The translations under genes were made by a program, and so were the position numbers. From Candidatus Komeilibacteria bacterium (lineage in GTDB: Bacteria > Patescibacteriota > Patescibacteriia > UBA1558): DNA of 55,111 nt. This document shows, piece after piece, positions 2,185-55,111 of the stretch (the stretch's first letter is position 1; each line of letters begins with the position of its first letter). The notes beneath the pieces were generated by a model, which saw only the letters and a list, made by a program, of their open reading frames with translations, was not told where the DNA came from and searched no databases. The DNA lies in the NCBI GenBank assembly GCA_048538275.1, contig JBLYPW010000001.1, positions 431,928 through 487,038 of the forward strand, written 5' to 3'.

Positions 2185-3431
2185 GGTAATTGCTTGATTG
2201 CTTGTAAGGCCGCATCTAGCTGATTATCAATATCATTATTATAGTCCTCTTCATTAAATTCTACCACTTTATCTGGCTCAATGCCAACATTATTGATAAC
2301 TCTATCTTTAGGCGTATGCCATTCAGCTACGGTAATTTTCACCGCACTACCGTCAGATAATTGCTCCAATTCTTGTACCGAACCTTTGCCAAATGTGGTT
2401 TCTCCCAATAAAGTAGCCAAACCATAATCTTGTAAAGCGCCAGCTAATATTTCGGAAGCAGAGGCTGATCCGCCATTAACCAATACGATAGTCGGTATGT
2501 CTGCCAAAAGAGGCATCCCACTGGTCACATAATCTTGATTGCGTGAGGTATTATAAAAAACTTCTTTGACCATAACTTGATGATCAACCCAATAACCGCC
2601 CAACTCAATAGCTACATCTAAAAATCCTCCCGGATTATTACGTAAATCTAGAATAATGCGCTGCGCATTTTGTTGCAGCAATTCATTGACTGCTTGCTTA
2701 AAACGCTTACCGGTGTCTTCATTAAAATGAGTAACTCTAATATAAGCAATATTATCATCCTTCATTTCCCATTGGACGCTGATAATGTTAATGGTATCAC
2801 GAATAATTTGAATATCTTGAGTTTTTAATTCTTCTTTATGCAAAATAGTAAGAACAACCGGGGTGTCCTTCTCACCACGAATCAAATTGACAGCTTGATC
2901 GGTAGACATGCCCGTAGTATCCAGCCCATCAATCGCTAAAATTTTATCACCGGCCCTGACACCAGCTTTATCAGCCGGCGTATCCGGTAAAGGAGCAATA
3001 ATGGTAAGAGTGTTATTTTTAATGCCAATCTCAGCGCCAATGCCCTCAAACTTCCCGCTTAGTTCTTTGGTAAATTTACCAGCTACTTCTGGATTGAAAA
3101 AAACCGAATAAGGATCGCCTAAAGCGGCTACCGAACCAGCCATAGCACCATAAAACAAATCAATATCGTTTATTTTGTCACGGTAAACATATTTATTTTT
3201 TACCAAATCCCAAATCTGCCAAAAAAGATTGAAATTTACGTCTTTACTTAAATAAGAAGGTATCTTATCTTGATTATAAACAGTACCAATTTTATCCGAA
3301 GAATTAGCTATTGCAGAGCCATTACCCACTAACCAGCCAAAGCCAAAACTGACTAAAATTAAAACAATAACCACGGTTGTGGTACGTTTTTTTACACTGG
3401 GAAAATTATACTTTATTTCATTCATGAGCAA
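2181..3431 (-). CDS. S41 family carboxy-terminal processing peptidase with PDZ domain
   Basis: N-terminal TM segment, a PDZ-like segment (GIGAEIG, GVRAGDKILAIDG) and S41 core (LDLRNNPGG, VLVNGGSASASEILAGAL, TFGKGSVQ). Confidence 0.85.
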   Translation of the reverse strand: MLMNEIKYNFPSVKKRTTTVVIVLILVSFGFGWLVGNGSAIANSSDKIGTVYNQDKIPSYLSKDVNFNLFWQIWDLVKNKYVYRDKINDIDLFYGAMAGSVAALGDPYSVFFNPEVAGKFTKELSGKFEGIGAEIGIKNNTLTIIAPLPDTPADKAGVRAGDKILAIDGLDTTGMSTDQAVNLIRGEKDTPVVLTILHKEELKTQDIQIIRDTINIISVQWEMKDDNIAYIRVTHFNEDTGKRFKQAVNELLQQNAQRIILDLRNNPGGFLDVAIELGGYWVDHQVMVKEVFYNTSRNQDYVTSGMPLLADIPTIVLVNGGSASASEILAGALQDYGLATLLGETTFGKGSVQELEQLSDGSAVKITVAEWHTPKDRVINNVGIEPDKVVEFNEEDYNNDIDNQLDAALQAIKQLP

Positions 3432-22938: not shown

Positions 22939-23122
22939 AGTAGCAATAGAGTACCAATTCGCCAAAAAAATGTCAACTGCCCATGCCCCAAATATTAAAA
23001 TCCCCACTACCTAAGAATTCTTATAGGTATTGTCATTGCCAATTCTAATAGAATCAACTAGCTTCTCAGCCTTAGTATTGAGCAAATAACTTGGCAATCG
23101 TATTTATATCGCCTGTATAATA

Positions 23123-23352
23123 TAGACTTCTCCGCTCGCTTACGCTCGGTCGAAGTGACGGAGGGGGTATGATGGCTCGGTCGAAGTGACGAGAGGGAAG
23201 GATAGAGGGCTGTGATCACAATAACAAAACTAAGCACAACCCATGGTCACTTCGACCGATGTCCAAACGCAGTGCGGACGAGCGGAGAAGTCTATTGTGG
23301 ATTCGTGCGCTGAAAGACTATTCTGCTCGTTTATGCTCTATCAATGTGATGG
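23123..23352. repeat. mosaic repeat cluster 4
   Basis: Module Y (23124-23160, +), module T (inverted), module X (23246-23294, inverted) and a degenerate Y arm. Confidence 0.9.
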
Positions 23353-23445
23353 TGTAATGCGCCCAAATGGGCCAAGCGACAACCCATCATTAATACCTGT
23401 GGACAAACACATTGACACTCCTCTCTAATATGTTAATATTGAGAT

Positions 23446-23513
23446 ACAAATGGTATCCCCTTTACGGGGTTGCTCCGAGACTCCATATCGCAAGATATGG
23501 AGATCGTTTTTTT
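23446..23513 (+). ncRNA. candidate small RNA convergent with the MazF-like gene
   Basis: TTGACA (23412-23417), 16 nt, TAATAT (23434-23439). Then a CCCC/GGGG hairpin and CTCCATATC-GCAA-GATATGGAG (23481-23502) followed by T7. No ORF. Confidence 0.4.
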
Positions 23514-23907: not shown

Positions 23908-23994
23908 ATTTTTATAATAAATAATAAATAATCAAAAAAGGGTCTGACGACCCTTTAAGCTATAATATAAAATCAAAGTCAGTTAGTCAAACCT

Positions 23995-24258
23995 CGCCCC
24001 GTCAGACTAGATCTATTTCGTCTGACGAGGCTCACCCCGTAAGACTGAGCCTGCCACGTCTGACGGGGCTTGCGGCGTCTGACGGTGCCTTTATCTGCTT
24101 ATAACACTTCCTCGTCACTTCGACCGATGTCCAAACGCAGTGCGGACGAGCGGAGAAGTCTATTGTGGATTCGTGTGTTGAGAGACTATTCTGCTCGTTT
24201 ATGCTCTATCGAAGTGACGAGGGGGAAGGATACAGAGCTGTGGTCAGAATAACAAAAC
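23995..24258. repeat. mosaic repeat cluster 5
   Basis: GTCAGAC/GTCTGAC hairpins, module X (24113-24161, inverted), a degenerate Y arm and module T (inverted). Abuts the higA stop codon. Confidence 0.9.
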
Positions 24259-28521: not shown

Positions 28522-31500
28522 TTAGTAACTGAAGCTGAAGGTAATAGGATCTTCTGCTCCTGAAACCCAAGTAATTGGGGAAGTTGCAGTTACAGCACCG
28601 TCATACCATGCAACGTCACCAGCTGTTGATACGCCACCGAGATCCATACTAACAATCAAAGTCTGATCGTTAGTATCATCTGTAGCCATCAATGTGTTGG
28701 TATTAGTTACAACAGTATAAACTTGTTCACTTGAACTGATAGTTAGATCAGTTGTAGGAACAAATTCTACGGTTGCTGCTGAAGTAGATGTTGGATAGAG
28801 ATATCCAGTCATCTTAGTAGTACCAGATGAGTCTTTGAAGTAAACTGCTAGACCATCTGTGGTTGCAACAGCACCTAAGTTACCTGAAATATCAAGATTC
28901 AAAGAATCGTTGTACAGTCTCAAGTTATCCACATCTACTGTGTCACCCGAAGCTAATGCAGTAGCAGATGTTAAATTAATTAGAGAAATAACATCTTTTT
29001 CTGCAGAGGTGGTAGGTAGAGTAACTTCAACATACTGCCACACATTTGCGTTAGCATAGTTAACAGTAGTTGAAGCCCTTGCTCCACCATCATCAGTAAC
29101 TGTAAATGTCATGTTATCTGCGGTTTGACTTGAACGTGTCCAGAATCCTAACTTAGAGTAACTTGACCAATCCTGACTAGAGTCAAAAGTATAACGCAGA
29201 ATATTAGCTGCTACAGGTGTGGTTGCACCCTGAGTAAATCTAATGACGTTAGTGCCATAAATTGGAGTAGTTGTATCTACACCAACTGTTGAACCATCGT
29301 CATCTGCGTCTACAGCTGTCCAGTCACCGTCTCCTAGAGAGGTTCCTGATGGAGAAACAGCGTCAGTAATTTCGTCAACTGTTGTACCAGCTCTTAACTT
29401 AGCTTGATAGTTGCTGTCAGCTGTAAAGCCGATCTTAGCAACTTCCTGTGAAGCGCCATAACTACCACCTGAATTATTAGGTGTCTTAGTTGTGGCTGTC
29501 AACATAGTACGGAATGCTTTCATTGAGTTAGCATTCACAGCTGAAGTTAGGTTAACTGAAATGTTACCTGAACCTTCACCGGTAGCTTCAAATGCGCTTC
29601 CGGCACCAGTTGCGAGGTAAGCATAGTTTGCTGTGTTTTCTGTGGCTGCTGTATAAGCAGATACGTCTGCTTTGACTTTAAAAGTCTTCACAGCACCGGC
29701 TGGGAGATCCCAGCTAACTGAGTTGAATGTGGCTACACCACTGGCAGTCACAGGTACGGTAGAACCAATTTGTTCACCGCTGTCACCGTCATACAGTGCC
29801 CAGTTGATAAGAGTATCATCTGCACCTGTACTGTTCTTGACAATGATCTTGCTAACAGTAACATCTTCAGCTCCAGAACTTTCCTCAACACGGAAAGTTG
29901 CAATGTGGTTACCGGTACTACCGGTTACCAACTGCATAGAGTCTGGTGAGTTACCATCTAAGGATACACTGAGTGATCCACCTGTTGAGAAGTAAACGTC
30001 TTGTAGTGTTGCACCTGAAGTGTCGTTGGCTGAGGTATTGGTGTCTACACCAGTACCGTTTACTTGTGAAATCTTTAATTGGCCGACCACACTACCTGTG
30101 GTAGCGCCTGACTTAACGTCAGCGAATACATTAACAACCATACTTTCTGAAGCATTCAAACGAATGCTGGAGCTTGGATTAAAGCTGTAAGTATTGCCAC
30201 CTGAAACAGTAGCTCTGGTATTACCAATTTGAGTACCGTCAGCTTTTTTCAACATCACATTCTGTAACTCATCGAATGCACTACTGGCATCACCCAAAGT
30301 AATAGTTGTAATATCAACCGCTTCGGATGAACCGGCTGTAATTACACCTGAGCCAACTTTTACATTGCTAGAACCGGCTACCCCATATGGGTTGCTAGAA
30401 CTACCAGCGGCAAAAGCGGCATTCTTGGCTGAAGATAGTGTGTTAGCTGTAGTAGTCAGCAGGTAACCTGCTTGATCTGTCATAGAAACAGTTGCAAGAG
30501 ATGTTACGCCTTGCGCACTACCTGAACTAGCAACAACTGTTACTGTAAAGGCGTCATCAGCATCCCATGAATCACCGTCGCCGTCTTTTATGTCAGCTTT
30601 AACAACCAAAGTCTTAGTTTCACCGGCAGGAACTATGAAGTTACTACCGAAATTGAATGTGTAGTTAGTGTTGTTAGCTACCAAGTTGGTAGTGGTTCCA
30701 ATTTGGGAACCATCTACATGTAGAGAAACTTGATACAAACCAGCATTATCTGCTCCTGGATCTGTTGATTCTGCCATCTTAACTGGAAGTGAACTGATCT
30801 TTACATCTTCACCTACAGCAGAGAAATCAACTTTAGCGACTGTAACGTCCGTACCGTCAATTGGTACATTGCCTGATGGTGAATCAGTAGCCCGAGTAAC
30901 AGTCATGCTACCGGTACTAATACTGGTTGAACCACCGGCCTGAATAACAGTCCAGCTGTCTGCTTGATTTGGTTTGATGTTTACACCGTATTCTACGTCT
31001 GTAGCAACCAGATGATATATCTGCTGTACACTAAACTTGAAGTTACGATTAGTACCGCCCACAATATCACCACGTAGTGAGAAATATTCAGTATTTCCCT
31101 TGGTAATACTAATTGGATTAGCACTTAAATCAAAGGTAAGAGTACCATCTGAGCCTAGCTGAGCTTTGGTGTCACCGTACTGGGTACCATCATTCTTTTC
31201 CAATTTGATGTTCTGCAAATCATCTGCAGCGACAGTACCAATATTAGTGAATTTGAGGTACTTAACCTGAACATTCTGATCGGCAGCTGCGAGTGAGAAT
31301 CTCCATAGTTCATAGTCAGTTTCACCAGCATCAACTGTTGAAGAGTATGAACTACTGGCAAGGGTTAACTTACCAAGATCACTCACTTGAGCAGTGCTCA
31401 TGACATTTCCGGTAACAGGGAAGGTGCCCTCAATAGTAGCGCCTGATGCAGTTACAACATCTGAAGAGCTTAAGATAGCAAACTTCATGTTGCGACTCGC

Positions 31501-32583
31501 TGAGGTACCGTTGGCAATATCAACTTTCAAGGTAACAGCCTTGGTACTGCCAGCTGAAACTGTAAACAGGCCATTGCTATTATTGAATGTCAATACACCA
31601 TCTGAAATGGAAGAATAACGAGCAATTAATTCATTGCCGTCATACAAATAAAAATCTGAAAAATCACTATCTGCTGAAGGGACTCCTTGGCGTTTGAATT
31701 TGACAGTATTAACTTGGATTGCTCCATCTGATGAAGCAGCAAAGTTAACAGTCATCATTTCAGCCATTGACTGAGCACCATCACCTGAAACTGCGTCAGC
31801 AATTAGTGTTGAGGAATCAGCACTACTTGAAGCCAAACCTACGGTCAAGCCGGTACCACCAACTGGAACACCAGAGCCGGCGTTACCACCTTGGGAAACG
31901 TCCATCAATGAGCTGTCAGCTGCGGAAATGGCGGAACCATCACTGTAAGCGCTTAGATCAGAGACAGTGATGATATAGTTGGCGTCATAACCATTAGCGC
32001 TCAAAGCATCCATAGATGCAAAAGGACGCTTGGCACCATCGGCGATCAAATAGATGGTATCGCTACCTTCCATTTTTACCAAGGAACCGGCTGGTACGTC
32101 GCCAGAAGCCAAATCAGAACCCACGGTGTATTGTGGGAAAAATACTTCGTTAATGTCATTCACCCGACTAGCCCAGTCAGCACCGTATAAACCGGCAGCG
32201 ATCTCTTCGCTAGGAATCCAGCGTAAGTTACCACTTGGTTCAACAGCGTAAACCTTGGCAGTATTAGGATGAGTGACCAATTTTGTACCCGCACGATACA
32301 AAACCATACCACCGTCGGCATAAGTGTCTAATTCTGCAACGCTCAATAACTGAACATTGGAGAAATCACTGTACCAACTAAAGTAGGTCTTGGCATCCGG
32401 GAATACATACTTCTTCATATCACTACCAATGTAGTAAACAGCGTCGCTGTTAGGTCCTTTTACCAAGGAACCGGCATCAACGGCAGCTTGCGCTACATTT
32501 GGAGTAACAAAACCTAGACCAAAAGTAGCTATAGTAGCTATGGTCACGGCAATGATGAAGCTTTTTTTAGCAAAATTTGCCAT
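28522..32583 (-). CDS. very large secreted/surface protein (S-layer or adhesin-like)
   Basis: 1353 aa with an N-terminal signal/anchor. Three N-terminal surface-repeat domains, then Ser/Thr/Ala/Gly-rich beta-type repeats. Strong AAGGAG Shine-Dalgarno. Confidence 0.75.
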   Translation of the reverse strand: MANFAKKSFIIAVTIATIATFGLGFVTPNVAQAAVDAGSLVKGPNSDAVYYIGSDMKKYVFPDAKTYFSWYSDFSNVQLLSVAELDTYADGGMVLYRAGTKLVTHPNTAKVYAVEPSGNLRWIPSEEIAAGLYGADWASRVNDINEVFFPQYTVGSDLASGDVPAGSLVKMEGSDTIYLIADGAKRPFASMDALSANGYDANYIITVSDLSAYSDGSAISAADSSLMDVSQGGNAGSGVPVGGTGLTVGLASSSADSSTLIADAVSGDGAQSMAEMMTVNFAASSDGAIQVNTVKFKRQGVPSADSDFSDFYLYDGNELIARYSSISDGVLTFNNSNGLFTVSAGSTKAVTLKVDIANGTSASRNMKFAILSSSDVVTASGATIEGTFPVTGNVMSTAQVSDLGKLTLASSSYSSTVDAGETDYELWRFSLAAADQNVQVKYLKFTNIGTVAADDLQNIKLEKNDGTQYGDTKAQLGSDGTLTFDLSANPISITKGNTEYFSLRGDIVGGTNRNFKFSVQQIYHLVATDVEYGVNIKPNQADSWTVIQAGGSTSISTGSMTVTRATDSPSGNVPIDGTDVTVAKVDFSAVGEDVKISSLPVKMAESTDPGADNAGLYQVSLHVDGSQIGTTTNLVANNTNYTFNFGSNFIVPAGETKTLVVKADIKDGDGDSWDADDAFTVTVVASSGSAQGVTSLATVSMTDQAGYLLTTTANTLSSAKNAAFAAGSSSNPYGVAGSSNVKVGSGVITAGSSEAVDITTITLGDASSAFDELQNVMLKKADGTQIGNTRATVSGGNTYSFNPSSSIRLNASESMVVNVFADVKSGATTGSVVGQLKISQVNGTGVDTNTSANDTSGATLQDVYFSTGGSLSVSLDGNSPDSMQLVTGSTGNHIATFRVEESSGAEDVTVSKIIVKNSTGADDTLINWALYDGDSGEQIGSTVPVTASGVATFNSVSWDLPAGAVKTFKVKADVSAYTAATENTANYAYLATGAGSAFEATGEGSGNISVNLTSAVNANSMKAFRTMLTATTKTPNNSGGSYGASQEVAKIGFTADSNYQAKLRAGTTVDEITDAVSPSGTSLGDGDWTAVDADDDGSTVGVDTTTPIYGTNVIRFTQGATTPVAANILRYTFDSSQDWSSYSKLGFWTRSSQTADNMTFTVTDDGGARASTTVNYANANVWQYVEVTLPTTSAEKDVISLINLTSATALASGDTVDVDNLRLYNDSLNLDISGNLGAVATTDGLAVYFKDSSGTTKMTGYLYPTSTSAATVEFVPTTDLTISSSEQVYTVVTNTNTLMATDDTNDQTLIVSMDLGGVSTAGDVAWYDGAVTATSPITWVSGAEDPITFSFSY

Positions 32584-33984: not shown

Positions 33985-34370
33985 CGTCATAGTATCCTTG
34001 TGATACAGGGCTTTATCCTTTCCCTTGTCATTTCGACCGTAGTCACGCCCAGTCAGACGTGGCCTCGTCAGCTTAAGCTGACGTGACGGGCTTCCTCTCG
34101 TCATTTCGACCCAACTATCATTTTCTTTGTCACTTCGACCGAGCGCAAGCGAGCGGAGAAGTCTCTCAGCACACCACTCCCTTATAGACTTCTCCACTCG
34201 TCCGCACTGCGTTTGGACATCGGTCGAAGTGACGAGGAAGTGTTATAAGCAGATAAAGACCCTGTCAGACGTGGCAGGCTCAGTCTGACGGGGTGAGCCT
34301 CGTCAGACGGCAAACATCTAGTCTGACGGGGCGAGCCTCGTCAGACGGCATATATCTAGTCTGACGGGGG
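33985..34370. repeat. mosaic repeat cluster 6
   Basis: Module T, palindrome Z (about 34062-34091), a Y/X hairpin composite (34128-34234) and three GTCAGAC-12 nt-GTCTGAC hairpins (34263-34366). Confidence 0.9.
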
Positions 34371-34945: not shown

Positions 34946-35294
34946 TATTTAAGACGTCATTAATAGCTTAATGTTACAGTAAAATTTCCTTACAATGTAC
35001 AGTATTATAATAAAAAAAAGCAGAATATTCCACTTAGTTTATCTACAGTTTTAGACTATTTTTTGGTCATAATCTTACAAGAACAATACTTTACCACGTC
35101 CTACCGTCTATGTCAATGGGGAGATATTATATATACATAATTTTACATTATACTTTATAAGGTGTAGAATAGTGTAGAAGTTCTAGTAAGAATATTGTTA
35201 AATCACTATTTTATATTCATTTGAATCAACCATTATACTCCCCTATCACTTTGAGCGGGTTATTGCTGTATTATGACAATTATTCCTCACCTCA

Positions 35295-35596
35295 CCCCGT
35301 CACTTTGACTGTAATTCATGGGTATTGCTATTAGACTTCTCCGCTCGTCCGCACTGCGTTTGGACATCGGTCGAAGTGACGAGGAAGTGTGATGAGCAGA
35401 GACAAAGGACCCTGTCAGACGGGCCTCGTCAGCTTAAGCTGACGTGACGGGCTTCCCCTCGTCATTTCAACCGAGCAATCATACCTCCCCCACCGTCACT
35501 TCGACCGAGCGCAAGCGAGCGGAGAAATCTCTCACCACACCACTCCCTTATAGACTCTCCACTCGTCCTCACTGTGTTTGACAGCGGTCAAAGTGA
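35295..35596. repeat. mosaic repeat cluster 7 (left arm of the ~290-bp inverted repeat)
   Basis: X (35333-35381), linker, palindrome Z (about 35420-35452) and a Y/X composite (35494-35596). 35295-35587 is the reverse complement of 40819-41108. Confidence 0.9.
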
Positions 35597-35662
35597 CAAG
35601 TCTATTATTGTGTCGTCTTGTTATTATTAACCCTCTATTACTCCCTTGTTGATTATAATCAT

Positions 35663-35962
35663 ATGATCAGAATAACCGTTTCCGAGGCTAGCCGCTTATT
35701 TGGCGTTTCTACCAAAACTATAAGGCAAGCCATTAAAAATCAAGAAATAAAATATGTCGTAGTCAGAGGTCGCTATAAGCTCCAATTTGAGTCGGTCTTA
35801 AAGTGGTCACAAATCAGTACCCGACGCCGTAATCAGCGTGACCGACAAGGCATTGGTCGCTATGTTGATCAGTGGAATATTTCCAATCGCAAATATTCTC
35901 CCCGACCAGAATATATCAAACAGGATGAAACCGGCCACTACTTTGTTGACAAAAATAAATAA
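35663..35962 (+). CDS. excisionase/MerR-type helix-turn-helix DNA-binding protein
   Basis: MIRITVSEASRLFGVSTKTIRQAIKNQEIKYVVVRGRYK resembles excisionase-family HTH proteins. ATG at 35663 is preferred over the TTG at 35618. Confidence 0.55.
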   Translation: MIRITVSEASRLFGVSTKTIRQAIKNQEIKYVVVRGRYKLQFESVLKWSQISTRRRNQRDRQGIGRYVDQWNISNRKYSPRPEYIKQDETGHYFVDKNK

Positions 35963-35999
35963 TTTGACAAGACAATAAAATTGCTGCTATATTAATATC

Positions 36000-36176
36000 A
36001 CCCTAAAAACCCGTCCTGTGACCTGCCTGTTATAATACACTCTACCTAATTTGGTAAAAGCGTATACTCCACATAACTTGTCAGGTCACTACCCGGTAGC
36101 TACAGAATGTAACCATTCTGTGCACTCCCTACCCCCCGGCTTATAGCTTAAAGCAGCTGGGGGGTTTATTTATTTT
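36000..36176 (+). ncRNA. candidate structured small RNA A
   Basis: TTGACA 35964-35969, 18 nt, TATATT 35988-35993. Internal stems GTGACCTG/CAGGTCAC and ACAGAATG-TAAC-CATTCTGT. CCCCCC...GGGGGG hairpin plus T-rich tail (36132-36176). No ORF. Confidence 0.45.
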
Positions 36177-36223
36177 GACATAATAACTATTGACACTTTA
36201 CCCACTATCTGCTATGCTTGCAG

Positions 36224-36328
36224 TGCTGTCCTGCACAAGCGCCTAGACTAGAAGAGATAGAAAATCTTCAAATAGGCGAAGCAAACAAAAGGGGCCCCAA
36301 TCTTATGTCCAAAAAAGGGGCCCTTTTT
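36224..36328 (+). ncRNA. candidate structured small RNA B
   Basis: TTGACA 36190-36195, 17 nt, TATGCT 36213-36218. Stems TGCAG/CTGCA and CGCCT/AGGCG. GGGCCCC...GGGGCCC hairpin followed by TTTTT (36291-36328). Confidence 0.4.
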
Positions 36329-36364
36329 ACTTGACAAATATATAAGCTTTTTATACTATTGAAT

Positions 36365-36548
36365 CATAACCTAGGGTTGTATAAACAACTACTAGGTGAA
36401 AAAAATGGCGCCCGTGTTATTTAATATATCAATGCATAAATCCTCCTCACGGTTAAGCAAAGATACATAGCGGGCGCCATTACTTCACATCTTATGACCT
36501 TAATTTTTTGAGATGTGCTGACTGACTGCTTAAAGTGGTCAGTTTTTT
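36365..36548 (+). ncRNA. candidate structured small RNA C (contains a 21-codon sORF)
   Basis: TTGACA 36331-36336 with TATACT/TACTAT at 15-17 nt. 10-bp inverted repeat ATGGCGCCCG/CGGGCGCCAT (36405-36414, 36471-36480). Terminator ACTGACTGC-TTAAA-GTGGTCAGT plus T6 (36521-36548). Confidence 0.45.
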
Positions 36549-36596
36549 GTGGAAAAAAAGCTTGACAATAATAACATGATAATTTAATATTATTTG

Positions 36597-36772
36597 CATA
36601 TGGGCCTGTAAAGCCTATGACATAGCGCAAGGATAGCGCAATCATACAACGGGTATTTACCCGTAAAACTGCTATAAAGCAGTCCTGTATGGTCGCCTGG
36701 ATACGTGGGATTATCCTGAGCAACCAACACAATTGAAAAGGGCGGGACAGCAATGTTACTGCCCTTTTTTAT
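36597..36772 (+). ncRNA. candidate structured small RNA D
   Basis: TTGACA 36562-36567, 17 nt, TAATAT 36585-36590. Hairpins ACGGGT/ACCCGT and CTGCT-ATAA-AGCAG. GGGC...GCCC terminator plus T6 (36737-36772). Confidence 0.45.
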
Positions 36773-36827
36773 TTCCAGTGAACATTTATACAAAACAACC
36801 TGTCTTTAAAATAGACGGGTTTTATAT

Positions 36828-37706
36828 TTACTTGCGATTGAGACTGGCAAGCCATTGCTTTGGATTATCTTTTATATATTCCCTAATTCTTTCCAAATCA
36901 TCATCGTCTCCTATGATGTGTTCATAATAATTTCTTTGCCAAGCAAAATCACACAAACCCAATTTGTGTATTGCTTTGGATGTCATCATTTTATATTTGC
37001 CAATTAACATGGGTAATACCATACGTCGCCTATTTTTTATCATTTTTTTACGTAGAGGCAATTCATGAATTGCCTCTACGGGTTGGGGCATCATACGTTC
37101 ACACCCATCATGAATTGCCTCTACGGATGACATAATATGGTTTGGCGCATCATGAATTGCCTCTACGGGTTGGGGCATCATACGTTCACACCCACCATGA
37201 ATTGCCTCTACGGGTTGGGGCATCATACGTTCACACCCATCATGAATTGCCTCTACGGATGACATAATATGGTTTGGCGCATCATGAATTGCCTCTACGG
37301 GTTGGGGCATCATACGTTCACGCCCATCATGAATTCCCTCTACGGATGACATAATATGTTCACGCCCACCATGAATTGCCTCTACGGATGACATAATATG
37401 GTTTGGCGCACCATGAATTGATTTTAAAATCTGAATAATGAGATGGATATGATTAGGCATGATAATATATTCATCTAATTTTACATGCTTGAATTGCGCG
37501 CTTAATTTCTCTAAATTATCCTGTGCAATCTGACCGTATCTATTTAATAACACCCTATATTGTTTTACCTTGCCAAAATATTTTCTTTTATTTTTTACAC
37601 AAATAGTAATAAAATAATATCCCGGCCTGGAATAATCATAAAACGGCAAGCGTAATGACTGCGTTCTATATTTATTTTTATACAAAGCCGATTTATATTT
37701 TGCCAT
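36828..37706 (-). CDS. IS200-like Y1 (HUH) transposase, REP-associated tyrosine transposase-like, with internal repeat expansion
   Basis: YDYSRPGYYFITICVKN N-terminus, HUH motif MPNHIHLII and catalytic-Tyr region FAWQRNYYEHII. Eight VEAIH-containing 14-15-aa repeats lie between them. Terminator hairpin at 36797-36822. Confidence 0.8.
   Translation of the reverse strand: MAKYKSALYKNKYRTQSLRLPFYDYSRPGYYFITICVKNKRKYFGKVKQYRVLLNRYGQIAQDNLEKLSAQFKHVKLDEYIIMPNHIHLIIQILKSIHGAPNHIMSSVEAIHGGREHIMSSVEGIHDGRERMMPQPVEAIHDAPNHIMSSVEAIHDGCERMMPQPVEAIHGGCERMMPQPVEAIHDAPNHIMSSVEAIHDGCERMMPQPVEAIHELPLRKKMIKNRRRMVLPMLIGKYKMMTSKAIHKLGLCDFAWQRNYYEHIIGDDDDLERIREYIKDNPKQWLASLNRK
37050..37425. repeat. in-frame 42/45-nt minisatellite inside the Y1 transposase gene, with a terminal 30-bp palindrome
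   Basis: Core GAATTGCCTCTACGG starts at 37067, 37112, 37154, 37199, 37244, 37286, 37331 (1 mismatch) and 37373, with a partial copy at 37414. Perfect palindrome CGTAGAGGCAATTCATGAATTGCCTCTACG at 37050-37079. Confidence 0.9.
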
Positions 37707-37792: not shown

Positions 37793-39295
37793 TTATTTAA
37801 TCGCAAATATTTTTATTTTAGCCAAAGCCGCCTTGGCCAAAGCCATACGCTGTTGGCTTTGTGCATATAAAGTAAACAATCGCTGATCCTTCTTAACTGT
37901 ATCACCATACTCAACATTCAAATAAATACCGGCTAATTTATCCTTAGGCGCTCCCAAAATCCTACATAGAGTATTGATTTTTTTATTGTCTGTCAAAACA
38001 ATCTTGCCGCTCCGGGGCGCATTTATATAATGCTTAATAGCGCCAATAGTAATATCCTCCGAATCAATTTTGTGTTGTCCGCCTTGGGCTTTGATGATGG
38101 CCTGCATTTGCTGCCAAGCCGCCCCTGATGCCAAAGTCTTTTTTGCCAATGCCTGGCCCTTGCCCTTGGGCGCTTTACCGGCCAATTCTAATAGTTCTCC
38201 GGCCAATCTAACAGATTTCTTTTCTAAATCAAAGGGACGAATATCTTTTTGCTGTAATACGCGCAAAACATCGCGCGCTTCCAAAGAAGGGCCAATGCCC
38301 TGGCCGATCGGATCCAAACTCAAAGTTTTGATCACCTTAATCTTGATGCCAAATTGCCGGGCCACATATTTAAATTTTCTTTCTAACATAGCGGCTGTCT
38401 TCATATCCGGAATTTTAGCTGTCTCCCCGACAGGCATATCAATAATCAAATGATTGACCGAGGTAGCGACTTTTTTAGCCATGACCGACACTATCATTTT
38501 ATCATAAGGCTCCAAAGATAAAGGATAAGTCACTTTTAGTATCCTATCATCAGCCGGTGCCAGATTAAAACCGCCGCCCCAAACCATGCAAGCGCCGGTT
38601 TTGCGTACTATTTCTTTCATTTCAGAAGCCGAGAATGTGACCGGGGCCAATACCTCCATAGTATCTGACGTGCCGGCCGGTGAAGTAATCGCTCGTGAGG
38701 AAGTTTTTGGTATTTTTAAGCCTAGGGCAGAAATAATTGGGATAATAACCATAGTTGTTCTATTACCCGCCAAGCCGCCGACCGAATGTTTATCTACCAC
38801 CAAGCCTTTATAATGTATTGTCTCGCCCGTTTCGGCTATCGCCCGTGTCATATGAACAAGCTCCTGATTGGTATATGGATACATATAAGTCGCCGCCACA
38901 AAATAAGTGATCTCCGTATTGCTCAAACGATTATTGACTATATCGGTAATGATGGATTGCGCATCTTGCTTGGTCAAACGCTTGCCTGTCAATTTTCTTT
39001 TGATGGCCTGCACCGAAGCCGGCCTGCCCAAAACTTCTACCTCTACTATTTCATTACTTTCCACGGCATGGCGGGTCCAGACATCTTCATATAGGCCAAT
39101 TTCGCCCGGCTTGATATGTTTATCTGAAAGATTGGCTTCTACCACCACTTTTTTTCTACCGCGCCAATGTAAAGAAATTTTATCACCGGCATGAATGCCA
39201 TAATGATAAGCCTCTTCTTCATTCAATAAAGCGATTAAAACTTGGCCGGTAGAAAAATCCAACTTTTTTACCTTGAGATAATATGGTGCTGCCAT
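37793..39295 (-). CDS. deoA: AMP phosphorylase (thymidine phosphorylase family, archaeal DeoA type)
   Basis: 500 aa. Extra N-terminal domain (YYLKVKKLDFSTGQVLIALLNEEEA) and pyrimidine-nucleoside phosphorylase core (DKHSVGG, TSRAITSPAGTSD). Adjacent to RuBisCO. Confidence 0.85.
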   Translation of the reverse strand: MAAPYYLKVKKLDFSTGQVLIALLNEEEAYHYGIHAGDKISLHWRGRKKVVVEANLSDKHIKPGEIGLYEDVWTRHAVESNEIVEVEVLGRPASVQAIKRKLTGKRLTKQDAQSIITDIVNNRLSNTEITYFVAATYMYPYTNQELVHMTRAIAETGETIHYKGLVVDKHSVGGLAGNRTTMVIIPIISALGLKIPKTSSRAITSPAGTSDTMEVLAPVTFSASEMKEIVRKTGACMVWGGGFNLAPADDRILKVTYPLSLEPYDKMIVSVMAKKVATSVNHLIIDMPVGETAKIPDMKTAAMLERKFKYVARQFGIKIKVIKTLSLDPIGQGIGPSLEARDVLRVLQQKDIRPFDLEKKSVRLAGELLELAGKAPKGKGQALAKKTLASGAAWQQMQAIIKAQGGQHKIDSEDITIGAIKHYINAPRSGKIVLTDNKKINTLCRILGAPKDKLAGIYLNVEYGDTVKKDQRLFTLYAQSQQRMALAKAALAKIKIFAIK

Positions 39296-39514
39296 AAAAA
39301 AATTAATAATTAAAAATTAGAAATAATTGATAGAACAAAACTTGCTACGCCCATGCTGTGGCTGAGGCGATTTTTGCTTGTCATTTTTTGTCTCACCCTG
39401 TACAACTTACCCACTTATTGACTTATGCCGCCGCTGGCGGCATTTCGTCCAAGGCGGTGGTAAACTTAACGCTTACCAAGTAAATCAAAATATATTTCTG
39501 AAGAAAATAAATCA

Positions 39515-40783
39515 TCACTCCTGCCAATACTTCAAAGCAGTGGCTAATTCTTTATGTTCTTGAGCTGCCTTAGTCAAAGAAATACCGGCTAAAGTAGCCT
39601 GCAATGCTTGATGGGCCGCCCGAGCGCCAGCTGCTACGCCTTGCGGATGACCAAAAATACCGCCACCAAAATTGATAATCACCTCTTGCCCGATATATTT
39701 AACCACATTAGGAATCATGCCCGGCTGCAAACCACCCGAGGCCACCGGCATAACCGGTTTAATACTGCTCCAATCACTACGCAGATTATCAAAATGAGCC
39801 CAATCCTCTTTGAGAAAGTCATCCAATTCAGTTACTACTTTACTATCCCCGTCCATTTTTCCCACCACGGTACCAGTGTGTAACTCGTCAATACCAGCCA
39901 GCCGTGCTAATTTAGCGACCACCAACATGCTCATACCATGCTCTGGCAAACGAGAAAACATTGAATGTCCGGCGCGATGACCATGCATCACCAATCCTAA
40001 GTTTTCCTGACGCAAAGACTGTATTGCGCTCCATCCCATGGCAATAATATCCACCATCATACAAAATCCCCCATGAGCTTTGATATATTTAGCTCTTTTT
40101 AGAGCCTCATTATAAGGTGCGGTGATATTGATAATAGCCATTTTTTTCTGGCCGGTTTCTTTTTCTACCCGCCTGCGCATCTTCAATACCTCGCGCACTC
40201 TTTCTCGGAAATGATTGAAATCCTGATCAGTTAGATTTTCATCATCTTTGACGACATCAACACCGTTTTTCCAAAGCTGATAACAAGCATTGGCGTGTTG
40301 CTTGGCGGTCAGACCAACCTTAGGCTTGACGATAGATCCTACTAAAGGCCGCCCCTGAATATTCAGTAATCTACGTAAGCCATCAATACCAAATCTTGGG
40401 CCGGGCATACTTTTTATATAGCTTTTGGGAAACTCTATATCTTCCAAACGTAAATGCTCCACTACTTTCATGGAAAATATATTACCAGCAATACTGGATA
40501 ATAACTGAGGAATATTACCCTCTTCAAATAAAGCTAAAGGATAGGCTATTTTTACCATATGCTTGCGTCGGTCTTCCCCAATAATCTTAGGTGCCAATTT
40601 TTTATACTGCGCTTTTGATAACCTAGCAATCTTTGTCCAGGTACCGATAGAACTTTCACCGGCAATAGCATGCACGGCCTCGCGCCACGACAAGCTAGGC
40701 GCGTCAAAATAGAATTTGGCGATAATATGCTTTTCCGGATTAAACGGCTTAGTAAATTTATAAAAATTAAATTGACTATACAT
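39515..40783 (-). CDS. rbcL: ribulose-1,5-bisphosphate carboxylase large subunit, form III / II-III-like
   Basis: 422 aa. Active-site motifs GVDVVKDDENL, MHGHRAGH and FGGGIFGHPQG. No small-subunit or Calvin-cycle genes nearby. Confidence 0.9.
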   Translation of the reverse strand: MYSQFNFYKFTKPFNPEKHIIAKFYFDAPSLSWREAVHAIAGESSIGTWTKIARLSKAQYKKLAPKIIGEDRRKHMVKIAYPLALFEEGNIPQLLSSIAGNIFSMKVVEHLRLEDIEFPKSYIKSMPGPRFGIDGLRRLLNIQGRPLVGSIVKPKVGLTAKQHANACYQLWKNGVDVVKDDENLTDQDFNHFRERVREVLKMRRRVEKETGQKKMAIINITAPYNEALKRAKYIKAHGGFCMMVDIIAMGWSAIQSLRQENLGLVMHGHRAGHSMFSRLPEHGMSMLVVAKLARLAGIDELHTGTVVGKMDGDSKVVTELDDFLKEDWAHFDNLRSDWSSIKPVMPVASGGLQPGMIPNVVKYIGQEVIINFGGGIFGHPQGVAAGARAAHQALQATLAGISLTKAAQEHKELATALKYWQE

Positions 40784-40814
40784 AATAATACTAAATATTA
40801 AAAATTAATTTACT

Positions 40815-41254
40815 TGCCCCGCTGTCAAACGCAGTGCGGATGAGTGGAGAGTCTATAAAGGAGTGGTGTGCTGAGAGACTTCTCCGCTCGCTTGCGCTCG
40901 GTCGAAGTGACGGAGGGGGTATGATGGCTTGGTTGAAATGACGAGGGGAAGCCCGTCACGTCAGCTTAAGCTGACGAGGCCCGTCTGACAGGGTCCTTTG
41001 TCTCTACTCATCACACTTCCTCGTCACTTCGACCGATGTCCAAACGCAGTGCGGACGAGCGGAGAAGTCTAATAGCAATACCCATGAATTACAGTCAAAG
41101 TGACGGGGCTTGCGGCGTCTGACGGGGCTTGCGGCGTCTGACGGTGCCCTTATCTGCTCATCACACTTCCTCGTCACTTCGACCGATGTCCAAACGCAGT
41201 GCGGACGAGCGGAGAAGTCTAATAGCAATACCCATGAATTACAGTCAAAGTGAC
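40815..41254. repeat. mosaic repeat cluster 8 (right arm of the inverted repeat plus a 98-bp tandem duplication)
   Basis: 40819-41108 is the reverse complement of 35295-35587. 41007-41104 is repeated exactly at 41157-41254. Confidence 0.9.
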
Positions 41255-54532: not shown

Positions 54533-54969
54533 AAGCCTAAGAGGGCTGATAAGCCGAATTCTGTCCCTTTATCCAAAGACAAAGGTGATGATCATCTATC
54601 TAGCCGCCACATTGCTGCGACGATCAATAGCGTTCAACCCGTCTCTGCCCAAGGCAGAGAACCTACTTGAACTTGCACCGAGTAGAAGTTTACCTAGCCG
54701 ACTATGTCACCATAATCGCTGGTGGTCTCTTACCAGCTCAACCCACAGGCCGACTGATTCCCGTCTGGGAATACCACCGTTTCACCCATCACCCAGCTGC
54801 TGTTAAGCGACTGGGCTGGTCTATTCTCTGTTGCACTTGTCCTCTATCGCTAAAAACAATAGGGTCGGTGTTACCGACTACCCACACCGTTATAAAAACG
54901 GCGCAAAAATGGTGTTCGGACTTTCCTCTCATCCTCATGAATGAGCGATCATCTTGCCCTCTTAAGCTT
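54533..54969 (-). ncRNA. rnpB: RNase P RNA, bacterial type A
   Basis: Minus strand carries GAGGAAAGTCCGAAC, GGGTGAAACGGTGG, GGTAAGAGACCACCAGC, GGTAAAC...GGTGCAAG and ACAGAATTCGGCTTATC. The 5' AAGCTTAAGAGGGC pairs with the 3' GCCCTCTTAGGCTT (P1). Upstream TTGACA (54998-55003), 18 nt, TATATT (54974-54979). T-tract after the 3' end. Confidence 0.9.
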
Positions 54970-55111
54970 TGTTAATATACTATAAATTAGCTACTTTTGT
55001 CAATCCTTGTAGCATTGCAGCGAAAGGTTTACACTGGCTAGCTTGTTTAGCTTCTGTATAGGTGTTAAGCCATCCATACCAAGGCCTCTATGCCTCTTTT
55101 GGTAGTTATAA

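Follow-up and report, generated by a model that had tools for sequence, protein, structure and literature searches.

Within the 55,111-nucleotide (nt) stretch of DNA analysed here, the window, which comes from a member of the Patescibacteria (Candidate Phyla Radiation, CPR), 866 bases between a helix-turn-helix (HTH) gene (35663-35962, plus strand) and a convergent Y1 transposase-like gene (36828-37706, minus strand) are without a credible open reading frame (ORF) and carry four consecutive plus-strand units, which we call the array. We propose, with a probability of roughly 0.5, that the array consists of four separate, unrelated, lineage-specific small non-coding RNA (sRNA) genes, each with its own promoter and its own terminator. 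This proposal builds on the promoter motifs and their enrichment, folding in excess of shuffled sequences, the absence of ORFs and of known RNA families, the presence of the array as a single copy in a variable slot between core genes, and the invariance of units 1 and 2 between two strains; from these we infer that the units would be transcribed, where their RNAs would end and that they may have a regulatory role. The genome has a GC content of ∼40%, with no difference between the array and its surroundings, and the minus strand of the window carries almost all of the genes. Komeilibacteria metagenome-assembled genomes are the closest relatives, and compared with the nearest of them (L002) the HTH protein is 72% and the AMP phosphorylase 81% identical.

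Predicted promoters, transcripts and terminators

An initial annotation of this DNA had described four units, each with a perfect TTGACA -35 box, a -10-like hexamer, a stable structured stretch and a hairpin followed by a T-tract, and had regarded them as without obvious sequence in common, lacking coding potential, not matched by eye to 6S, SRP, tmRNA or a known riboswitch, and unusually dense. At the level of sequence these observations were all borne out. The four -35 boxes (at 35964, 36190, 36331 and 36562) are exact, the hexamers follow at 17-18 nt, the structured stretches measure 104-185 nt with folding z-scores of -3.8 to -6.7, and the T-runs end at about 36176, 36328, 36549 and 36770 (Table 1). 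The units are tightly packed, with the first -35 box lying 1 nt past the stop codon of the HTH gene and gaps of only 13, 2 and 12 nt separating each T-run from the next -35 box.

The motif TTGACA-N17-TAnnnT occurs 11 times in the window, compared with 0.73 ± 0.84 times in shuffled sequences, none of which reached 11. Three of the 11 copies fall in the array, where the unit 1 spacer is 18 nt, and most of the copies outside it lie directly upstream of ORFs. Since the motif is both enriched and mostly found upstream of ORFs, it marks real promoters in this organism. The only certain RNA gene in the window, that of RNase P RNA (54534-55003, minus strand), is preceded by TTGACA-N18-TATATT ending ∼8 nt before the mature 5′ end, which is the same architecture as that of the unit 1 promoter. 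The RNase P RNA itself is of class A (190 bits) and has one helix insertion of 45 nt, where the model has 6. All four units of the array are thus preceded by a putative promoter of the housekeeping sigma type, and a predicted intrinsic terminator lies 50-300 nt downstream of each, without an intervening ORF, as in a generic intergenic sRNA gene.

We also scanned for consensus promoters followed within 40-260 nt by a hairpin and a T-run, outside long ORFs. The 0.8 kb of the array contain four such units, compared with six in the 758 kb of 166 related loci, confirming that a four-unit array is far beyond chance. Elsewhere in the window the scan returned one probable small gene and one further orphan unit (23412-23512, plus strand, opposite to the surrounding genes). 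This fifth unit has a TTGACA-N16-TAATAT promoter, a predicted RNA of ∼70 nt with a z-score of -4.7, a T7 run, and two hairpins (CCCC..GGGG and CUCCAUAUC-GCAA-GAUAUGGAG).

The z-scores compare the minimum free energy (MFE) of each predicted transcript with those of dinucleotide shuffles; when the terminator hairpins are left out, they become -6.1, -2.2, -6.7 and -2.5 for units 1 to 4. In unit 1 a multibranch domain closed by GUGACCUG/CAGGUCAC is predicted, with a hairpin ACAGAAUG-UAAC-CAUUCUGU and an unpaired CUCCCUA stretch, and the unit ends in a terminator hairpin (36132-36164) followed by the T-tract TTTATTTATTTT at 36165-36176, which is the first terminator downstream of the HTH gene. Unit 2 folds into a single hairpin (GCGCCUA...UAGGCG) and a terminator at 36287-36328 (AAAAGGGGCCCC / GGGGCCCUUUUU), which is flanked by an A-run on one side and a T-run on the other and is thus predicted to be bidirectional. 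The RNA of unit 3 would include a 12-bp GC-rich stem (AUGGCGCCCGUG/...CGGGCGCCAU) enclosing a largely unpaired internal region with an exposed, anti-Shine-Dalgarno-like AUCCUCCUCA, before a terminator hairpin (36520-36544) and T6. Unit 4 is a run of short perfect hairpins and then a terminator at 36736-36770 (GGGCGGGACAG...CUGCCC and T6). Units 1 and 3 have T-runs on the plus strand alone; an A-run precedes the terminators of units 2 and 4, which would act in both directions. The units share neither sequence nor a common fold with each other, and share no sequence with the rest of the window.

Table 1. Predicted features of the array and the genes on either side of it
Feature	Coordinates	Strand	Details
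Unit 1 promoter	35964..35993	+	TTGACA, N18, TG-extended TATATT
Unit 1 predicted RNA	36000..36176	+	∼177 nt; MFE -60.9, z -6.7
Unit 2 promoter	36190..36218	+	TTGACA, N17, TG-extended TATGCT
Unit 2 predicted RNA	36225..36328	+	∼104 nt; z -3.8
Unit 3 promoter	36331..36359	+	TTGACA, N17, TACTAT; begins 2 nt past the unit 2 T-run
Unit 3 predicted RNA	36366..36550	+	∼185 nt, four hairpins; z -6.0
Unit 4 promoter	36562..36590	+	TTGACA, N17, TAATAT
Unit 4 predicted RNA	36597..36772	+	∼176 nt; z -4.5
Left flank, HTH_17 gene	35663..35962	+	PF12728, excisionase-family; core Patescibacteria gene, outside the array
Right flank, Y1 gene	36828..37706	-	IS200-like / RAYT-like; convergent with the array, outside the array

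Searches of the whole window with the Rfam 15 covariance models at the gathering score gave no match in the array, whether to HEARO or omega RNA or to any other family. A permissive search (E ≤ 10) of positions 35000-37200 returned Hrs12 as its best match, at 23 bits versus a threshold of 70 (E = 0.86), and this match is essentially the terminator. Rfam likewise gave no matches on 20 related loci, and ARAGORN found no tRNA or tmRNA in the array. The sole ORF in the array that is preceded by a Shine-Dalgarno sequence is one of 21 codons in unit 3 (36405-36470), whose product MAPVLFNISMHKSSSRLSKDT is not hydrophobic, and a 110-aa minus-strand ORF that spans units 3 and 4 is spurious. Units 1, 2 and 4 contain no ATG ORF of at least 10 codons that is preceded by a Shine-Dalgarno sequence and ends before the terminator. 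A tblastn comparison of the relatives' slot proteins with the 0.8 kb of the array found no gene remnants.

Several known kinds of element were considered and rejected. A type I toxin-antitoxin locus would require features that are missing, as there is no hydrophobic toxin ORF and no minus-strand promoter candidate with at least 10/12 matches within the array. CRISPR, TIGR (TIGR-Tas) and ToxI repeat arrays do not fit, since there are no direct repeats within 35964-36772. A TnpB/IscB omega RNA was set aside because the only neighbours are the HTH_17 and Y1 genes and the slot has no RuvC-type ORF; a cluster of sibling sRNAs because the units are not homologous to each other; and elements of the repetitive extragenic palindromic (REP) or REPIN kind, belonging to a REP-associated tyrosine transposase (RAYT), because each hairpin of the array occurs just once in the 55-kb window.

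In the scheme that we favour, each unit would be transcribed from a sigma-70-type consensus promoter of its own up to an intrinsic terminator of its own. The resulting RNAs, of ∼177, 104, 185 and 176 nt, would be abundant and stable, and would most likely act in trans, via base pairing or protein binding. The exposed CCUCC stretch of unit 3 (AUCCUCCUCA) resembles the anti-Shine-Dalgarno tail of 16S rRNA, and C-rich loops mask ribosome-binding sites in Gram-positive sRNAs; this anti-Shine-Dalgarno-like stretch could occlude ribosome-binding sites. Unit 1 would supply the terminator of the HTH mRNA and could double as an sRNA of the 3′ untranslated region (3′UTR) type. Such an origin is suggested by the fact that its terminator is the first that the HTH mRNA would meet, and the same layout is found in L002.

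As to possible targets, sense and antisense exact k-mers within the window do not exceed 13 nt, which is at the level of chance, and duplex energies with 43 translation-initiation regions in the window lie within the shuffled range. Two exact matches reach 13 nt. One (CTTAAAGTGGTCA) is shared by the unit 3 terminator (36529-36541) and the HTH coding sequence (35797-35809), and the other (TTATAGCTTAAAG) by the loop of the unit 1 terminator (36141-36153) and positions 23953-23965 on the other strand, beside a terminator-like hairpin. Both (E ∼0.14 each) are probably due to chance.

A variable slot between core genes

We compared the locus of the HTH gene with 80 genome loci and six contigs that carry its closest homologues. 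The HTH protein has more than 300 homologues across Patescibacteria at 55-78% identity, and lies in a conserved gene order: DUF5667, an extracytoplasmic function (ECF) sigma factor, HTH, then, after a variable interval, AMP phosphorylase and RuBisCO. In L002, L082, L086 and L087 the HTH gene follows the DUF5667 and ECF sigma genes as it does in the window, and in L002, L013 and L082 the next conserved genes past it are those of AMP phosphorylase and form III RuBisCO. In the 80 genome loci the next gene usually starts 0-100 nt after the HTH gene, most often with no spacer at all. Almost all of these loci have nothing comparable past the HTH gene, and none of them has an array of promoters and terminators; no sequence resembling the array was found in the 80 loci or the six contigs.

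The interval between the HTH and AMP phosphorylase genes, which we call the slot, spans only 1.8 kb in the window. It is about 300 nt long in L013. In L082 a 180-aa ORF that begins 4 nt past the HTH gene is all that it holds; this ORF is 46-50% identical to the Y1 gene of the window and is its ortholog, and there is no array. In L002 it holds one promoter/hairpin/terminator unit and then four ORFs that include a HigBA-like pair. The L002 unit (3296-3405) has a TTGACA box 2 nt past the HTH stop, a hairpin RNA of ∼95 nt and the terminator AAAAAATTCTGGGTCGCAGAATTTTTTT; it is the positional counterpart of unit 1 and has no sequence similarity to it. As judged from these gene orders, at least two lineages have the Y1 gene as a resident of the slot; the array is a lineage-specific addition of ∼0.86 kb between the HTH and Y1 genes. 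In the scheme that we favour, the array would fill a variable slot in which relatives hold nothing, one gene or other cargo.

The initial annotation had placed the array in a possibly mobile segment and proposed a check of its co-occurrence with the HTH or the Y1 gene. This framing did not survive the comparison: the HTH gene belongs to the conserved, syntenic core of Patescibacteria and is widely found without the array, and the Y1 ortholog of L082 also lacks it, so the array travels with neither neighbour. In accordance with this, 80 metagenome loci of RAYT relatives (at most 46% identity) showed no similarity to any unit.

The sole other copy of the array that we found is in L001, a 983-nt sequence from a near-identical strain (97.7% identical overall), which spans the HTH gene, the first two units and two thirds of the third. 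Since L001 is an independent assembly from another sequencing run, the array is not an assembly artefact. The differences between the two strains are unevenly distributed. There are nine in 158 nt of non-coding sequence upstream of the HTH gene and five, all synonymous, in the 300-nt HTH gene itself, followed by none over the 455 nt from 35924 to 36378 that cover the first two units and the promoter of the third, and then by six events within 36379-36460 in unit 3. At the rate of the HTH coding region (1.7%), ∼8 changes would be expected in the 455 nt, as opposed to the zero observed. The changes in unit 3 affect loops or bulges, namely the tip of a hairpin, an A-run in a linker and an internal loop, and the main stems are preserved. 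In this single comparison, the lack of change over 455 nt is suggestive of either strong purifying selection on units 1 and 2 or a recent exchange of the tract.

Beyond this strain, searches for relatives of the units returned nothing. A blastn search of the units against the 166 related loci had no match besides L001, and when 529 kb were searched with a covariance model built from unit 1, the best foreign match scored 15.7 bits (E = 0.06), which we read as noise. There were also no matches by blastn in phage and plasmid collections, and exact searches found neither a 22-mer in metagenome contigs nor any of four 20-24-mers in viral ones. At the protein level, the spurious 110-aa ORF yielded no candidate; a search with the RAYT C-terminus, which sought the contig carrying unit 4 of the L001 strain, gave only matches of at most 56% identity; and exact look-ups retrieved no record of the sigma factor, RuBisCO or AMP phosphorylase proteins. 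Conservation is thus confined to a single near-identical strain, and this comes close to one of the outcomes that the initial annotation had named as a refutation, a lack of conservation outside this genome.

AMP phosphorylase and form III RuBisCO are encoded side by side at 37793-40783 (minus strand), and in L082 these two genes are followed by one of the IF-2B family, probably a ribose-1,5-bisphosphate isomerase. AMP phosphorylase, form III RuBisCO and the isomerase make up the nucleotide-salvage CO2-fixing pathway of archaea and CPR bacteria. A 1353-aa ORF at 28522-32583 (minus strand) has no Pfam match at E ≤ 0.01, and its counterpart in L082, of 1307 aa, has no Pfam match either and also adjoins the DUF5667 / ECF sigma pair.

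Competing explanations

Several observations weigh against four sRNA genes. The minus strand folds about as well as the plus strand, with no strand asymmetry, and the stems are almost all perfect Watson-Crick pairs, so that the folds alone are no proof of function at the RNA level; the assignment to the plus strand comes from the promoters and T-runs, not from the folds. Complementarity to targets within the 55-kb window is not above chance. No homologue of any unit was found beyond the one near-identical strain, so that the array lacks the conservation in related genomes expected of a generic sRNA gene, and no diverged copies were found from which covariation could be read. Finally, the identical 455-nt tract could stem from recent recombination and not from purifying selection.

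One alternative, which we regard as possible though unlikely, is that the units are the RNA cargo of a horizontally acquired accessory module in a hotspot, such as RNA antitoxins, anti-phage or anti-defence RNAs, or decoys, and do not regulate host genes. The slot between the HTH and AMP phosphorylase genes does differ in every relative examined (L002, L082 and L013), and the units have no relatives in neighbouring lineages. However, the slot contains no partner protein gene, no toxin-like hydrophobic small ORF, no antisense promoter and no repeats of the ToxI, CRISPR or TIGR kind, the units have no match in phage, plasmid or viral collections, and the GC content does not depart from that of the surroundings.

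It is also rather unlikely that the units are non-functional relics, in which promoters and terminators have been left behind by lost small genes or cassettes and any transcription would be noise. Such an origin would agree with the lack of conservation beyond one strain and with the fast turnover of the slot, but in the absence of selection four correctly spaced, exact TTGACA boxes and as many intact terminators would soon decay. Fused remnants of untranslated regions would not be expected to fold as the bodies of units 1 and 3 do, at six standard deviations better than shuffles. In addition, the 455 nt have remained without a change while their flanks diverged, and tblastn finds no trace of the relatives' slot proteins in the 0.8 kb.

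A more speculative reading, to which we give little credence, sees in the array an accessory module of an episymbiotic CPR bacterium that consists of RNA alone: a compact group of four unrelated structured RNAs, expressed constitutively and strongly, which would work together. On this reading the module would have been acquired or have arisen de novo in the fast-turning slot, and its RNAs could for instance be decoys or sponges for factors of the host or of phages, an RNA-based defence or anti-defence, or exported effectors, as opposed to ordinary regulators of the bacterium's own mRNAs.

That the hairpins act at the DNA level, as REP-like palindromes or as substrates of the adjacent Y1/RAYT enzyme and not as RNAs, seems very improbable. 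A RAYT-like gene does adjoin the array, for the most part the stems are perfect palindromes, which fold equally well on either strand, and the genome is rich in REP-like repeats. REPs, however, are multi-copy and flank RAYT genes, whereas each hairpin of the array is unique in the 55-kb window; the RAYT ortholog of L082 is without such hairpins, and the four consensus promoters and the plus-strand T-runs would be left unexplained. The chance that any of the units codes for a very small protein or is a dual-function RNA is similarly slight: AGGUGA does lie 6-7 nt upstream of the ATG of the 21-codon ORF in unit 3, but this start codon is buried in the 12-bp GC-rich stem, the ORF is frameshifted in L001, with its C-terminal third and its length changed, and the other units offer no comparable ORF.

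REP-like repeats are found elsewhere in the window. Composite copies occupy many intergenic spacers (34000-34360, 35320-35600, 23120-23330, 24000-24250, 40810-41215, ∼20732 and ∼21160) and give rise to spurious ORFs, and two blocks of them flank the ECF sigma gene on both sides. They include GTCACTTCGACCGAGCGCAAGCGAGCGGAGAAGTCTC, the palindrome CGTCAGCTTAAGCTGACG and tandem AGTCTGACGGGG..CCTCGTCAGACGGC units. These spacer repeats may be what the RAYT-like enzyme really acts on. The Y1 gene itself contains an in-frame array of ∼360 nt (37063-37420, minus strand) made of 7-8 copies of a 42/45-nt tandem repeat, with the HUH motif (NHIHLII) on one side and the catalytic Tyr motif (QRNYYEH) on the other. 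CATGAATTGCCTCTACG is present in each of these repeats, and a perfect palindrome of 30 nt occupies 37051-37080. In L082 the syntenic ortholog (180 aa) has no in-frame repeat array. The repeats may be REP-like DNA that has invaded its own transposase gene.

Significance and comparison with known systems

The regulatory RNAs of Patescibacteria are essentially uncharted, and these bacteria have tiny genomes with few protein regulators. If the four units are real sRNA genes, they would be concrete candidates for a first look at riboregulation in the CPR, and their consensus promoters should ease testing in a surrogate host. They may also represent a case of rapid gain of sRNA genes in a variable slot between core genes. 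If they are not expressed, promoter-plus-terminator signatures alone would over-predict sRNAs in these genomes. Our literature searches found no characterised sRNA in Patescibacteria and no RAYT-linked sRNA array.

Among known systems, REP elements or bacterial interspersed mosaic elements (BIMEs) with their RAYTs resemble the array in that clustered GC-containing palindromes adjoin a gene of the Y1 HUH family. Unlike them, the hairpins of the array are single-copy, do not surround the RAYT gene as inverted pairs, and come with promoters and T-runs. Tandem sibling sRNAs, such as LhrC1-5 of Listeria, PrrF1/2 of Pseudomonas and AbcR1/2 of Agrobacterium, are paralogues with shared seed sequences. 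They are also tandem genes, each with its own promoter and terminator, but the four units here have neither sequence nor a common fold in common. The sRNAs of islands and prophages, exemplified by the Spr RNAs of S. aureus and the Isr RNAs of Salmonella, are closer in being specific to a strain or lineage and in occupying variable, horizontally exchanged parts of the genome. At the array, however, no integrase, att repeats or GC shift is seen, and the slot comprises just 1.8 kb between core genes.

A further parallel concerns unit 1 alone. DapZ and MicL are 3′UTR-type sRNAs that have their own promoter, located inside the upstream coding sequence. Unit 1 is comparable in that its promoter begins 1 nt past the HTH stop and its terminator is the first for the HTH mRNA, with the difference that the promoter lies just after, and not inside, the upstream coding sequence.

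The nearest comparison for all four units is with classical intergenic sRNA genes, which have their own sigma-70 promoter, a length of 50-300 nt and a Rho-independent terminator. Early sRNA screens in E. coli reportedly used this signature of promoter, length and terminator, and required conservation in related genomes. The array differs from the classical genes in lacking such conservation and in the arrangement of its units, four head to tail with almost no spacer. It agrees with them in its orphan promoters, its short, structured, non-coding predicted transcripts, its hairpins followed by a U-tail and its intergenic location. On these grounds the units fit the textbook signature of intergenic sRNAs, and are credible candidates for orphan, lineage-specific sRNA genes.

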